Positions 13,283 to 20,449 of a stretch of DNA of 64,000 nt are shown piece by piece (the first letter of the stretch is position 1; every line of letters begins with the position of its first letter). The DNA comes from Escherichia coli (GTDB taxonomy: Bacteria > Pseudomonadota > Gammaproteobacteria > Enterobacterales > Enterobacteriaceae), in assembly GCF_050920415.1 (NCBI RefSeq), contig NZ_CP169309.1; one strand, given 5' to 3'. Below the pieces are notes generated by a model. The model had not been told where the DNA came from and ran no database searches. It was given only the letters and a program-made list of their open reading frames with translations. The position numbers and the translations under genes were made by a program.

Positions 13283-13310
13283 GGTGCGCATAATGTATAT
13301 TATGTTAAAT
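13283..13310 (+). other. dif: dif, the XerCD chromosome-dimer resolution site
   Basis: Exact match to the 28-bp E. coli dif GGTGCGCATAA-TGTATA-TTATGTTAAAT (XerC arm, central region, XerD arm). It sits next to hipA as in K-12. The KOPS motifs found in the window point toward it from both sides. Confidence 0.95.
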
Positions 13311-13315
13311 AGCCT

Positions 13316-13756
13316 ATGATGGTAAACAACTTCATATCTCTCCATTGCCTCTCACGAAAGGAACTGGACACACTGATCGAGCACGAATTACAACTGATGC
13401 TGGCTGAAGGCTTTGACAAGTCCCCTATTTCCGCCAAGGCTCTGCATATTCGGCTCAAGGCAAAAGGTATCGTTAACGGTGGTTTAAGTACGCTGAGCAG
13501 CCTTGAGCGAAAACGCCTAATTGCTGCCTATGTTGATCAGCAACTTGGCCCGTTGAATCTACGCCCAAAAGAAAAACAGCAATACGTCAACCGCAAAACC
13601 CGTCAGGCCTTGCTGGCCAGAAACCAGCAGTTGCAGGCGGAAGTCAGTGAACTGCAAGACCAACTGGCGCAGAATACCCTATCGTTGATAGAAATTGTCA
13701 AAGCGGTAAAAATCAATACGGTTATTCCGGTGGAAAGTCTGTTGCCAAACATGTAA
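13316..13756 (+). CDS. Hypothetical 146-aa protein with a C-terminal coiled coil; function unknown
   Basis: The ORF begins 5 nt after dif and has no obvious Shine-Dalgarno sequence. The C-terminal half is heptad-like (NQQLQAEVSELQDQLAQNTLSLIEIV). The N-terminal segment ISAKALHIRLKAKGIVNGGLSTLSS is faintly reminiscent of KfrA-type DNA-binding N-termini (my inference only). Confidence 0.45.
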   Translation: MMVNNFISLHCLSRKELDTLIEHELQLMLAEGFDKSPISAKALHIRLKAKGIVNGGLSTLSSLERKRLIAAYVDQQLGPLNLRPKEKQQYVNRKTRQALLARNQQLQAEVSELQDQLAQNTLSLIEIVKAVKINTVIPVESLLPNM

Positions 13757-13854
13757 TTCGGGAATTACACAAGTCGTCATAATGCTGGTTATAATTTTCG
13801 GCAAAGGGCATGGACGATTTCTTTCCGTCATTCTGTATATTGCTTACCTTCCCA

Positions 13855-13883
13855 AATTTCTCCAACCGTTAGTTGGAGAAATT
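13855..13883. terminator. 12-bp perfect-stem hairpin between convergent ORFs (possible bidirectional terminator)
   Basis: aatttctccaac-cgtta-gttggagaaatt. A stem this long is unlikely by chance in 64 kb. There is no clear U-tract on either strand. Confidence 0.35.
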
Positions 13884-13897
13884 AGATGAGTCGTAAA

Positions 13898-17352: not shown

Positions 17353-19308
17353 ATGATGTCCGTTAATGGTGATGTCCACACTATAATACTCAGATCTTCT
17401 ACTACAAATACTACAAAAGACCTGTGCGATAATGGAAACATGATACCACTGGCGGGTATCAAAGCCATACTTGATACAAGTTCCGGAGGATTTTCCAGTT
17501 GGGTCAAAAAGTTACTATATGCTATTGCTCATTTGTTAGGAAGCGAAAAAATTCCGAACAATGAGAATATGCGGGAAGGCATGGAATATCTTAAGTTGAT
17601 TTTTAAAAGCGCCATTCAGGAAGAGAAGTACAGATATGTCATCCGGGATGAGAGTGGCGAGGTTTATGTAGAAATAAACTTTGCCCCGGAAGCGAAACAG
17701 TTGTCCATCAGTTGTGCCGGGGGGAACGAATCAATATGTTGTACAGAAAAAGAGTTTACAAACGTTAAACAAAACCTCATAGAAAAATATTGTCCGAGAA
17801 ATTACCAAACGTCCTATGATCTGGTTGCGAACAAGCTTTACAGGTATGACATTTTAGAAGAGCTGATGGCTTGCGACAACAGGGGTGAGAGCATTTTGTT
17901 CAGGGCTATGCGGGACGGGGATACAGATTTGATTGAAAGCCTTCACCTGTCCGAACTTACCAGTAAAGGCGAACTCACCTCCAGTAAGATGCTAAAATTA
18001 CTGGAGGCGTCAAGCGAAGGGGGTACCCCGGGTTTGTATATGGCCATGAAGAACGGACGCTATGACATGCTGGATACAATACTGGGCTTGCTCGCCAAAC
18101 TGCCCGATAATTATAACATTAACAAAAATGATGTACTGAGGTTACTGAAAGCAAAAAACTCTGATCCGAGATCTAATTCGATTGAAGGGTTGGAAATTGC
18201 CATGACGGAAGGACATGATAAAATACTGATAACGATGATGGAAATGCTTCCCGACGTGGTCAAGAGGTTTGGAATTACCAATGATGAGATGCGGGATTTA
18301 ATCAATCCACGTAGGGGTGATGATCGCGCTTTGAGCAAAGCCATGCTTAATGGGAAAGAAAACATAGTGACCGCTATGCAACGGTTACTCCCCGACCATG
18401 CCGAGAAATTACAACTCAGCAAAGAGGATGTCTTTAATATACTGTCTTCATTCAACGATAAAACTTCCCAAAACCCCTCGGGTTTATTTAAGGTCATGTC
18501 ACATGGGAAGGTAAATATGCTGAAGTTCATGCTGGATAATCTCTGCGCGCTACCGAAGGAGGTATTTACCAAAGAGGATATTCTGGGTTTCCTGGCTGTA
18601 AGAAATGCGAATGGCATGACGGGGATGGCGCATGCTATGTCTTATGGTCATGTGGAAATAGTGAAGGCCATGCTGGACCGTCTCTGCTCGATGAAGGGGG
18701 AGTTTAATATTACCAAAGACTATGTCCTCAATAATATACTGGCTTCAAAAAACGGCAACGGCTGGACAGGGATATCTTTAGCCATAGCGCACGGACATGT
18801 GGAAATACTGAAGACCATACTGGACGCGCTCCCCATGCTGAATGATAATTTTGACATTACCGGCGCGGATATACAAAAGTTTCTGTTTGCAAAAATCGAC
18901 GAAGACATCTCGGGTTGGACCAAAGGTATGGACAGAGGGAATAAGGACAAACTGATAAGCATGTACAAAATGCTGTTCGATAACATACTGATGGATAATA
19001 AGTCAGATATTCCTGTTGATTTGCTGAGGGAATTAAATATTGTCAGCCATATTGTATTGACAGAAACTGGAAAACCAAAAACAGACGAAATAGCAAGGCA
19101 CTCTGAAACCAGCCTCACCTACGGACAACTCCGGCAATGGAGTGATCTGAGTGTACGGCGGGCGGCCAGGAGTTTAGAGGATTACTGTCGGAACCTAAAC
19201 ATTAATGTGGACACTGTCAAACCCTACCTGACCCCAGACGGGCTTACTCCCCTCGGCGAAGAGATGCGGGATAATGTAAAAGTGCAGGGGCTCACTGTTG
19301 TGGGGTAA
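17353..19308 (+). CDS. Ankyrin-like repeat protein (7-8 repeats of ~47 aa); type III effector-like, possibly ShET2/OspD/EspL-related
   Basis: The ORF track starts at GTG 17344. I prefer ATG 17353, which has AGGTGA 5 nt upstream. Repeats such as NGMTGMAHAMSYGHVEIVKAMLDRL and NGWTGISLAIAHGHVEILKTILDAL match the ankyrin core G-x-T-x-L/M-H/A-x-A-x-x-x-G-H-x-E-I-V-x-x-L-L. The N-terminus is Ser/Thr-rich and codon usage is AT-rich. The family assignment beyond 'ankyrin-like' is inference. Confidence 0.8.
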   Translation: MMSVNGDVHTIILRSSTTNTTKDLCDNGNMIPLAGIKAILDTSSGGFSSWVKKLLYAIAHLLGSEKIPNNENMREGMEYLKLIFKSAIQEEKYRYVIRDESGEVYVEINFAPEAKQLSISCAGGNESICCTEKEFTNVKQNLIEKYCPRNYQTSYDLVANKLYRYDILEELMACDNRGESILFRAMRDGDTDLIESLHLSELTSKGELTSSKMLKLLEASSEGGTPGLYMAMKNGRYDMLDTILGLLAKLPDNYNINKNDVLRLLKAKNSDPRSNSIEGLEIAMTEGHDKILITMMEMLPDVVKRFGITNDEMRDLINPRRGDDRALSKAMLNGKENIVTAMQRLLPDHAEKLQLSKEDVFNILSSFNDKTSQNPSGLFKVMSHGKVNMLKFMLDNLCALPKEVFTKEDILGFLAVRNANGMTGMAHAMSYGHVEIVKAMLDRLCSMKGEFNITKDYVLNNILASKNGNGWTGISLAIAHGHVEILKTILDALPMLNDNFDITGADIQKFLFAKIDEDISGWTKGMDRGNKDKLISMYKMLFDNILMDNKSDIPVDLLRELNIVSHIVLTETGKPKTDEIARHSETSLTYGQLRQWSDLSVRRAARSLEDYCRNLNINVDTVKPYLTPDGLTPLGEEMRDNVKVQGLTVVG

Positions 19309-19339
19309 GGCCCTGCACATCCCGTGGCCCCCTGCATGG

Positions 19340-19549
19340 CTAAAGCATGGAAAGCGGAAGAAAAAGCGCAATGAGGTCGTAGGACGAACGGTTCGGGGAA
19401 GGCTGAAGAGTACGTATCTGGTCCTGAAGACCGGATAAACCTTCATCGGTCCAACGTTTAAGCCACTTGTAGCTAGTGGCAGGAGAAATGCCGTAGTGAC
19501 GGACCCTGTAAATAATTCTGTGTAACTGCCCACGGTTAAAGGTGGCCGC
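19340..19549 (-). mobile_element. IS transposase N-terminal HTH fragment (IS481/IS630/IS3-type), no start codon
   Basis: My translation is AATFNRGQLHRIIYRVRHYGISPATSYKWLKRWTDEGLSGLQDQIRTLQPSPNRSS... It fits the transposase HTH pattern (G-IS..T.YKW..R....G..GL.D..R....SP). The frame is bounded by stops and contains no Met. Confidence 0.55.
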
Positions 19550-19710
19550 TCAGGCGGTCACCGTATTCGATAATAAATTGTGTGATTCATAGACATCGTT
19601 TCAATTTTCTCAGCTCAAGTTCAAGCTGGTTATTCTGTTCCTGTATATGCTCCTCATTGGGCTGATAGTTTGCATGAACGGCATCAGAGTATGGCGTTTT
19701 CTTAGCAAGT

Positions 19711-19868
19711 TCAAAGTAGCGCGCCATCGGAGTTATCAGCCACCCACAGCTGGTCAGGATGTTCTGCCATGAACTGACGATTCACACAGTCGCCTGCGGC
19801 AACGACTTTCCTGCTGACTGTAAACAGAACGACGGTCGGCGGTGAAATAACGGTCTTTGCCCTCACCT
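19711..19868 (-). mobile_element. IS3-family OrfB (transposase) fragment
   Basis: My translation is ...TVSRKVVAAGDCVNRQFMAEHPDQLWVADNSDGALL*. N-R-x-F-x-A-x-x-P-x-Q-L-W-V-x-D is the conserved motif just upstream of the IS3 DDE core (N.L.R.F....PN..WV.DIT). The DDE core itself is absent. Confidence 0.55.
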
Positions 19869-20449
19869 ACGCCATGGCCCAGCGCCCGGCTCATGTCGTA
19901 CATCACGTTAGTAGCCATCGCTTTCACGCGGGCATCCATTGCGGCGTCGTTCAAAACCATACCTCCCCAGCCGCAAATACCGGGTAACCTGATACTTCAA
20001 CAATAAGATTGGTGCGTGGATGATAGATTGCCAAATAATAATCCATCAAGAAATAATGACAACAAAAAACATCAAGCAACCCTAATGTTATTTGGTCATA
20101 TAAAACATTAATAAGTCTTGACCTTTCCTGACATTTTCCTTATTCGCAATAATATTCTGTTTAGACGTTGTTTATAAACATCATGCATAATGAAATCGTC
20201 ATGTTATTTGGCGATATAAAAAAGTCTTTGAAAATACTCTCTACAACAAGTGCAGTTATAAGCTTGTTGTGACTGAGCGTCCTTGTGATTTAAAGATATT
20301 ATCGTTCTTCATCAGATGTAATAACTCAGGAAATTATATTTTCAGGGTGACAGGCTAATCAAGAATGATTCTTTTTTATAAGCAATAACAGAATGACTGA
20401 ATTGTTATATTTCTTTATTCAGCTGCTTAAATATAAACTTTGGAGAATT

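Follow-up and report, generated by a model that had tools for sequence, protein, structure and literature searches.

Genomic islands that carry three integrases (GInts) need all four of their gin genes and are flanked by imperfect repeats of 10–17 nt (PMC5385486). Circle excision and integration have been shown to depend on all four gin genes only for the GInts of Pseudomonas (Bardaji et al. 2017, PMC5385486), and the insertion targets published for GInts are ssb and the genes for an ABC transporter and a ribonucleotide reductase (PMC5385486, PMC10214605). GInts have been reported in 7.5% of Escherichia replicons. The hipA–ydeT interval of Escherichia coli is defense hotspot #20, which Hochhauser et al. 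2023 (PMC10121019) found to be occupied in 62 of 783 genomes, and the islands found there in E. coli H3, with a type III cyclic-oligonucleotide-based antiphage signaling system (CBASS), and S43, with a type II CBASS, are labeled GInt in the supplement to that study (PMC10121019). Both the GInts and their presence at hotspot #20 have therefore already been published. Here, we analyzed a 64,000-nt stretch of E. coli DNA (assembly GCF_050920415.1, contig NZ_CP169309.1; hereafter the window, whose coordinates are used throughout), in which a block of accessory DNA lies flush against the XerD arm of the chromosomal dif site. An original prediction, made from the sequence of the window, had proposed that this block could be a decayed integrative mobile element that exploits Xer (IMEX). 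Our comparisons indicate that the block is very probably the fossil of a tandem array of two GInt elements, members of a clade that targets the outer edge of the dif XerD arm.

The locus shares features with several described systems. Like known GInts, its intact relatives have the four-gene order, cargo located immediately after the fourth gene, and a short AT-rich right end, together with 11-nt imperfect flanking repeats, strict site specificity, and variable cargo that often includes defense systems. Unlike them, the window copy is a relic that retains only a ginD remnant, two relics are stacked in tandem, and the attachment site of this clade is the XerD arm of dif. The block occupies the same interval as hotspot #20; however, the hotspot was defined by its flanking genes and dif is never mentioned (PMC10121019), and the cargo in the window is effector-like, with leucine-rich repeats (LRRs) and ankyrin repeats, rather than defensive, and the mobility genes are gone. 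The IMEXs (CTXphi, VGJphi, TLCphi, the gonococcal genetic island, and CUS/Ypf-type filamentous phages) also integrate at dif, regenerate it, and stack in tandem, but they lack a recombinase, carry a dif-like attP with XerC and XerD arms, and cross over at the central region, whereas the relatives of the window elements encode recombinases and cross over within the XerD arm, in its outer 7 bp. In a literature search lacking most subscription journals, no paper linking the GInts or hotspot #20 to dif was found, and the dif target specificity of this GInt clade appears to be unreported.

The accessory block begins at the base after dif

The dif 28-mer GGTGCGCATAATGTATATTATGTTAAAT occurs once in the window, at positions 13283–13310 on the + strand with 0 mismatches, exactly where the original prediction had placed it, and no shuffled sequence gave a match. 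It consists of the XerC arm (13283–13293), the central region (13294–13299), and the XerD arm (13300–13310), the last of which is at the same time the left-hand copy of the direct repeat of the GInt (the attL side). The strand of the FtsK-orienting polar sequences switches at dif, with one on the + strand to its left, five on the − strand to its right, and none in the block. The left neighbors of dif are hipBA and an ECSE_1600-family autotransporter gene, and the block gives way on its right, at approximately position 20067, to the flanking DNA of a fimbrial operon that is intact (the ydeT/S/R/Q locus).

The homology to genomes with other content in this interval ends at the last base of dif, so the block begins 0 nt after it and not 5 nt, as had been proposed; the ATG at 13316 is merely the start of a chimeric ORF. 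Similarly, the right boundary, previously set at 19980, was moved by alignment with K-12, Dog168, and MB64 to approximately 20066/20067 (±15 nt), and the fimbrial-operon flank beyond it is common to these three strains. The region from 13311 to approximately 20066 is accessory DNA. In a comparison set of 5,426 complete E. coli genomes, 80% or more of the block was present in only six, in agreement with the earlier statement that it does not look like core genome, and the junction between the LRR and ankyrin genes was present in 17. All seven LRR/ankyrin carriers inspected have one decayed layout, which indicates that the array is an inherited fossil. The nearest genome, MFDS1022581, is 99.9% identical to the window and differs by an IS2 at window positions 14728–14733. 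The tRNA and Rfam scans of positions 11000–22000 gave no match.

Intact relatives carry ginABCD directly after dif

Intact GInts adjacent to dif were examined at three loci, L005 (strain MB64), L011 (LR881940), and L013 (strain G3/10). In MB64, dif is followed by two integrase genes (466 and 516 aa), a gene encoding a 788-aa protein, and one encoding a 144-aa protein. The first two products (GinA and GinB) are tyrosine recombinases with the Pfam Phage_integrase domain, the third, large protein is recombinase-like and has no Pfam matches, and the fourth is small. The operon is collinear with the element of E. coli O157 Sakai and a distant homologue of it, with identities of 28% for GinA (E = 8e-17), 21% for GinB (2e-6), and 27% for GinC (2e-9); Idola et al. 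2023 (PMC10214605) include the Sakai element among their GInts. Downstream from the MB64 operon are the same MbcA and helix–turn–helix (HTH) genes as in the window, followed by retron Ec78 and an ABC-three-component system. Diverged versions of the operon occupy the same site in LR881940 and G3/10, where the cargo is a type I restriction-modification system, and the ginD–mbcA–HTH module adjoins the cargo in all the intact dif-adjacent GInts. The order hipA–dif–ginABCD is contiguous in at least 111 complete E. coli genomes in the MB64 form and at least 28 in the G3/10 form, or at least 139 in total.

The ends of these elements are also conserved. AT-rich right ends (TATTAAAAATAT...) were found in MB64, LR881940, and Escherichia whittamii, of which the window retains the last ~20 nt in one relic and nothing in the other. 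Inverted motifs of the AGTTCATAA type lie ~16–20 nt in from each end of the intact elements, at matching distances. The original prediction had noted that no integrase or recombinase gene is present in the block and had named the discovery of a conventional integrase or att pair as an observation that would contradict an IMEX origin. Both statements proved apt: tblastn searches of the window with GinA, GinB, GinC, and GinD detected only GinD, and the relatives at the same position supply both the integrases, in ginABCD, and an att pair, TTATGTTAAAT and ATAAGTTAAAT.

The cargo regions of the intact elements extend over L005 12622–20315 (retron Ec78 with PtuAB and the ABC-three-component system), L011 20133–27593, and L013 from 15376 onward (in both, type I restriction-modification with an M48 peptidase).

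Attachment site and crossover

K-12 and MB64 are identical up to the last base of dif, after which the alignment resumes at 99.6% identity 15.4 kb further on, with a 10-nt overlap. K-12 thus corresponds to MB64 and LR881940 minus 15.4–15.7 kb, with flanks that are 100% and 99.6–99.8% identical. The left border of the GInt insertion is the XerD arm TTATGTTAAAT, with dif preserved, and its right border is ATAAGTTAAAT; in MB64 and LR881940 the right repeat is followed by the post-dif sequence of K-12, CATGTCTGAGTG. The E. whittamii element has the same right repeat. In the window, TTATGTTAAAT (13300–13310) and ATAAGTTAAAT (16830–16840) are identical at 9 of 11 positions, which is within the 10–17 nt of the imperfect repeats that flank GInts. 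When attB (K-12) was compared with attL and attR (MB64, LR881940, E. whittamii, and the window), the variant bases (ATAA) were found at the far junction in four independent elements. As both variant bases are in the right copy, the exchange must have occurred within the remaining GTTAAAT, and the crossover maps inside these last 7 bp of the XerD arm, not at the central region of dif.

The position of the exchange bears directly on the proposal that an integrase-less element entered dif with the host XerCD recombinases and then decayed. The block is flush with the XerD arm and lacks a recombinase gene, its internal repeat ATAAGTTAAAT agrees with the XerD arm in 9 of 11 bases, and genuine IMEXs do use this dif, as the tandem filamentous prophages of strain WL297 demonstrate. 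In Xer recombination, strands are exchanged where the 6-bp central region meets the arms, which would move the chromosomal XerD arm to the far junction and place the arm of the element beside the XerC arm; however, the opposite was seen in the four independent elements. No XerC-arm-like sequence occurs at any junction, and the intact relatives located at the identical position have a recombination operon of their own, with four genes. A scan for a second dif-like site on both strands, with spacers of 6–8 nt, gave best candidates with 8 mismatches in 22 positions, and the number of full-site candidates with up to 8 mismatches in 13311–20600 (nine) was close to the 8.6 expected from shuffled sequences; otherwise only half sites resembling the XerD arm were present there. 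The original prediction had likewise found no convincing second site, and its description of the island as decayed also holds. Its IMEX mechanism, on the other hand, is contradicted by the ginABCD genes of the relatives, the crossover in GTTAAAT, and the absence of XerC arms at the junctions, and we regard it as very unlikely.

WL297 (NZ_CP128613.1, 2331000–2348500; locus L010) served as a control for an IMEX junction. At least two tandem 8.57-kb filamentous prophages, encoding pII, coat proteins, Zot, and a secretin, are located on the XerC side of dif, which is the side opposite to that of the block. Between the copies (junction near 7700) is a hybrid site, GGTGCGCATAA-TGTCAACGCG-TTATGTTGAAA, with a perfect XerC arm, and a perfect dif lies at the right end of the array (16264–16291). 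The junction of this IMEX falls at the central region of dif.

In the same strain, a GInt relic of the window type directly follows the perfect dif, so that a genuine IMEX stands beside a GInt relic. One dif-like candidate in the window, GCATAATG...CATGTTATTT at 20180–20209, was rejected, with 8 mismatches and a position in the conserved flank of fimA. The segment (ATCATGCATAATGAAATCGTCATGTTATTT) has GCATAATG and ATGTTA in common with dif, and its mismatches and 8-nt spacer put it at the chance level for a dif-like site. It is conserved in the window as well as in K-12 and Dog168 and might have a regulatory function for the fimbrial operon.

The original prediction had stated that only yneL and ydeT occur in the K-12 interval, which was confirmed, and had suggested that K-12 might have lost the block. 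Judged from the junctions described above, K-12 is an unoccupied site for these GInts, with what may be a different, older relic (yneL). A model in which the block is ancestral and was lost by deletion from K-12 and most other strains draws on the fimbrial operon, which is intact in the window and truncated in K-12 (ydeT), implying a deletion nearby in K-12, and on the single decayed layout of all carriers, which fits vertical descent within a lineage. Against this, the block is confined to 17 of the 5,426 genomes, strains with an intact fimA operon but no block exist (for example, Dog168), and the post-dif DNA of K-12 is the exact sequence found after the right repeat in the GInts of MB64 and LR881940. 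We find an ancestral block scarcely credible.

In K-12 (NC_000913.3, 1588500–1594000), 450 bp separate dif from the flank, including the pseudogene yneL, and this is the DNA located past the right repeat of MB64 and LR881940. The first 12 nt of the K-12 post-dif DNA resemble the left end of the 1517k-type GInt, and yneL itself may be part of an older relic. The smallest state was observed in Dog168 (NZ_CP080116.1, 2314–2720), where 407 bp lie between dif and the fimA flank and the first ~85 nt are homologous to a GInt left end.

dif as the target in other species

When one genome per species was scanned with MB64 GinC, seven loci were detected, five of which had sufficient flanking sequence: those of E. 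whittamii, Enterobacter wuhouensis, Enterobacter chinensis, and Enterobacteriaceae bacterium LSJC7, and a contig labeled Chryseobacterium. At all five, dif (with 0–1 mismatch) ends exactly where the left end of the GInt starts, whereas the 3-kb stretches left of dif show no relationship across the five loci. Unrelated left flanks with the same dif junction mean that dif itself is the target. Together with the at least 139 E. coli genomes, the left end therefore starts at the first base past dif in E. coli as well as in five further species, consistent with the strict site specificity of GInts. No dif is present at the Sakai GInt locus, indicating that dif targeting is specific to this clade. 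The E. whittamii operon is in place, although its ginA is apparently split into two ORFs, and the GinC of an Enterobacter element is 89% identical to that of an E. coli element.

The contig CACSKA010000003.1 (L023), labeled Chryseobacterium sp. 18061, contains a dif of the enterobacterial type together with a GInt that encodes a GinC with 96% identity to that of E. coli, and the label probably reflects contamination or mislabeling.

Two probable GInt relics in tandem

The first relic (relic A, 13311–16840) starts with a 47-nt left end (13311–13357, + strand) carrying the conserved terminal motif AACTTCATA at +19 to +27. All 47 nt align with the left end of the GInt in E. whittamii, and 27 nt align with that in LR881940. 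A chimeric ORF (13316–13756, + strand) comprises 14 codons of the left end, ginD codons 4–132 (13358–13744), and a frameshifted tail, and its product is 98% identical over 129 aa to the 144-aa GinD of MB64. The frameshift was detected with tblastn, and the orthologue is annotated as frameshifted in RefSeq. The genes ginA, ginB, and ginC have been deleted between 13357 and 13358, a junction that can be read directly against E. whittamii. The ORF had previously been described as an orphan; it does exist, but on the strength of this alignment it is a remnant of ginD, the fourth gene of the ginABCD operon.

Downstream from the ginD remnant, the C-terminal toxin-binding domain of an Xre/MbcA/ParS antitoxin (13898–14092, − strand; PF09722, E = 1e-10) is encoded apart from the HTH domain, and an mbcA-type antitoxin gene also follows ginD in the intact GInts. 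Next is the C-terminal part of a GInt-associated Xre-family HTH gene (14076–14331, − strand; Pfam HTH_3). The window segment 13358–14331 is 97.4% identical to L005 10691–11666. A further segment (14325–14645), with 82–85% identity to L005 12256–12577 and L011 19275–19622, is homologous to the cargo-proximal region of the intact GInts, relative to which ~590 bp are missing between the HTH fragment and this segment. The probable cargo of relic A is the LRR gene (15044–16651, − strand), and the relic terminates with the outer core of a right end (16820–16840, + strand), which ends in the right direct-repeat copy ATAAGTTAAAT. The 18-mer CAACATAAGTTAAATCAT (window 16826–16843) recurs unchanged at the right junctions of both the MB64 and the LR881940 GInt, and E. 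whittamii shares 15 of its bases. Apart from positions 16820–16840, the 64-kb window contains no strong match to the right-end core.

This repeat is immediately followed by a second GInt left end. The presence of ATAAGTTAAAT in the same 18-mer context, with a second left end adjoining it, argues that the block consists of two tandem relics. The left end of relic B (16841–16876, + strand) is 36 nt long with the motif TTACTTCATGAAC, and in G3/10 (96% identity) and 1517k (89%) the same left end lies directly after dif and leads into an intact or IS-interrupted ginABCD operon. In the window, ginABCD, mbcA, and half of the HTH gene have been deleted after it. What follows is a fragment of a second HTH gene copy, corresponding to its N-terminal part (16896–17041, − strand; Pfam HTH_31), with 96–98% identity to L005 11598–11775 and L011 18617–18794. 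The HTH fragments of the two relics overlap by 69 bp of gene sequence and are 91% identical there; read in this way, the apparent 69-bp HTH duplication is the overlap between fragments of two gene copies. The broken antitoxin-like gene noted in the original prediction is thus real and is represented by the pieces at 13898–14092, 14076–14331, and 16896–17041. An antitoxin of the Xre/MbcA type combines an N-terminal HTH and a C-terminal toxin-binding domain in one protein, encoded beside the gene for a RES/MbcT-type toxin, whereas here the two domains are on separate, overlapping ORFs and the HTH gene is itself split between 14076–14331 and 16896–17041. No toxin gene was found beside the antitoxin pieces, in either the window or the intact GInts.

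The probable cargo of relic B is an ankyrin-repeat gene (17344–19308, + strand; 654 aa, 43.6% GC; Pfam Ank_2, Ank_3, and Ank_4), divergently oriented from the HTH fragment. Beyond it are scraps of other genes. A fragment at 19364–19501 (− strand) encodes the N-terminal HTH and leucine zipper of an IS481-type transposase (Pfam HTH_28, 5.5e-6; LZ_Tnp_IS481, 8.5e-5) and is annotated by RefSeq as a partial HTH protein. A second fragment at 19587–19733 (− strand) corresponds to the C-terminus of an IS481-family transposase. As the two are not collinear, they represent separate scars, as had been predicted; the assignment of the second to a family comes only from the RefSeq annotation of MFDS1022581, with no Pfam match, so that the claim of two different ISs is only partly borne out. 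An internal fragment of an alpha/beta hydrolase gene (19823–19993, − strand) is likewise annotated by RefSeq with no Pfam match, and the eroded right edge of relic B (19994–20066) was delimited by alignment with K-12 and Dog168. A candidate for a third right end and repeat at 19991–20006 (ATACTTCAACAATAAG) had a score of 10, which was reached by 34% of the shuffled sequences, and was attributed to chance.

Several observations weigh against the assignment of both relics to GInts. The block contains no integrase or recombinase gene, and in tblastn searches of the 64-kb window with the four Gin proteins only GinD was found, so membership in the GInts rests on one remnant gene and the end sequences. 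The GinD of this clade has no BLASTP similarity to that of Sakai, and the protein accessions of the clade were not found in the examined part of the ginC–ginD list of Idola et al. (supplement 10). Relic A keeps ~20 nt of its right end, without the inner AGTTCATAA motif or the AT-rich stretch of the intact elements, and with this end mostly gone, the LRR segment could have entered by another route. For relic B, the scan of the window revealed no recognizable right end or repeat; no genome with relic B alone was found, and an artificial junction of dif and 16841 matched only the shared 36-nt left end. Neither the LRR nor the ankyrin gene was ever found inside a GInt with ginABC (seven carriers inspected). 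Finally, no virgin site, in which dif is followed by non-GInt DNA, was seen in E. coli, and the original attB flank was not recovered.

These observations could instead suit a generic hotspot, in which illegitimate or IS-mediated insertions and homologous replacement built up the block, the GInt pieces are incidental, and the LRR and ankyrin genes are not GInt cargo. Such a history would account for the missing right ends, the absence of these two genes from GInts with intact ginABC, the IS481-type scars and hydrolase scrap at the right edge, the IS2, IS21, and IS100 insertions in sister strains, and the GC content of the LRR repeats (61%, versus 41–47% in the surroundings). However, the outer landmarks are precisely those of a GInt: the left end starts at base +1 after dif, and a right-end core, a repeat, and a second left end occur together at 16820–16876 and only once in 64 kb. 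The LRR and ankyrin genes are at the cargo position, past the ginD–mbcA–HTH module and before the right end, and chance accumulation leaves the same start base in six species unexplained. We therefore consider an unspecific hotspot improbable. The related suggestion of the original prediction, that the terminus simply tolerates junk, does not fit the flush position of the block, which is a signature of site-specific integration at dif.

Proposed formation of the array

From the observed homologies, junction sequences, occupied and empty site pairs, and association with dif in six species, the following scheme can be proposed for the fossil array of two GInts. An intact member would consist of a short left end with ginABCD directly after it, cargo, and a short right end, and would recombine with the chromosome in GTTAAAT, leaving a perfect dif on its left and the imperfect repeat ATAAGTTAAAT on its right. 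As dif is regenerated, a newcomer would land between dif and the resident, and the elements would stack with the youngest nearest dif. Relic B probably arrived first, with the ankyrin gene carried along or acquired later, and relic A, with the LRR gene, second. Simple deletions would later have removed ginABC from relic A and ginABCD, mbcA, and half of the HTH gene from relic B, and further deletions would have cost relic A part of its HTH region and most of its right end, while the right end of relic B may have been eroded by IS elements. The array is presumably now immobile and vertically inherited in a small E. coli lineage.

Integration is probably catalyzed by the Gin proteins and not by XerCD, given the published requirement for ginABCD in the Pseudomonas GInts, from which we argue by analogy, and the position of the crossover at this site. 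XerD bound to its arm could still act as a helper. Nevertheless, dif is the only host-conserved part of the attachment site and the crossover is within the XerD-binding arm, and these two facts raise the idea that the clade is a hybrid of an integrase-encoding island and an IMEX, in which the Gin proteins recognize dif via arm-bound host XerD or compete with it, and occupancy modulates dimer resolution. We regard this hybrid as unlikely. If it were true, two recombination systems would share dif, and the hypervariable DNA beside dif in the Enterobacteriaceae would have one mechanistic cause.

On the reading of the block as two GInt relics, the integrase-less island at dif is no longer puzzling but can be explained as a fossil. 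The GInt clade would land at the 28 bp that are most conserved in enterobacterial chromosomes and leave dif undamaged, which would explain the hypervariable DNA outside the XerD arm (hotspot #20), the pile-up of relics there, and the movement of the elements between genera, as suggested by the 89% identity of GinC between Enterobacter and E. coli. Tn7 at attTn7 offers a parallel, as do other elements directed to strongly conserved sites of the chromosome, in that landing beside an essential, invariant sequence without damaging it provides a safe site in many hosts, although Tn7 uses a DDE transposase and TnsD rather than tyrosine recombinases. The clade also offers a testable system for the reading of an Xer site by non-Xer tyrosine recombinases and for the effects of insertion on dimer resolution.

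LRR and ankyrin genes as probable cargo

The LRR protein (535 aa) consists of an N-terminal domain and ~12 LPX-type repeats of 20 residues and matches Pfam LRR_4 (3.9e-17), LRR_1, and LRR_8. Its gene contains in-frame tandem arrays of 12 bp (×3.1; 15140–15176), 60 bp (×12.2; 15179–15917), and 9 bp (×7; 16429–16491). The description of a GC-rich, repeat-laden LRR gene beside an AT-rich ankyrin gene in the original prediction was accurate, with 61% GC in the repeat part of the former, against 41–47% in the surroundings, and 43.6% in the latter. Between strains, the orthologues of the LRR protein differ in length, from 339 to 535 aa, suggesting that the gene undergoes rapid length variation.

The effector-like nature of the cargo, also predicted, was supported by the NCBIfam partial matches of the LRR protein to SspH2 (1e-58, in the LRR region) and SlrP (8e-51), which are far below the curated cut-offs, and by the ankyrin gene next to it. 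Like the type III secreted LRR effectors of the YopM and IpaH–SspH–SlrP family, the protein has a 20-residue LPX-type repeat in variable number, and like YopM it lacks a catalytic domain. In contrast to IpaH and SspH, it has no novel E3 ligase (NEL) domain or remnant, and the secretion of the window protein is only inferred. The nearest NEL-bearing relatives are an 861-aa protein of Escherichia fergusonii (41% identity) and a 767-aa protein of E. coli (51%), and the N-terminal domain is homologous to that of these ligases. A Pfam search of the LRR protein detected no NEL domain (PF14496), and in tblastn searches with four NEL proteins, only their N-terminal and LRR parts were matched, with no match below 15176 and thus no NEL remnant downstream from the gene. 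Relatives of the ankyrin protein were found only in E. coli in a word-indexed search; the other matches among 1.8 billion representatives were confined to the repeat region, at 25–35% identity. No secretion system was found in the region of the window examined. By their family resemblance, the LRR and ankyrin proteins may be or have been secreted effectors, and their genes are probably GInt cargo rather than later insertions. The elements of this clade would then deliver effector-like genes in addition to the defense systems reported so far.

Neighboring genes and sister strains

The flanks of the block (13000–13310, the 3′ end of hipA, and 20067–20500, upstream from fimA) are only ~90–95% identical to those of most E. 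coli genomes, a sign of a divergent allele or lineage in the terminus region. Other carriers of the block have IS21-family insertions (ISEc62 and IS100) within it. The ECSE_1600-family autotransporter gene to the left of dif (5935–11403; 1,822 aa) is intact in the window, and its K-12 counterpart is the pseudogene yneO.

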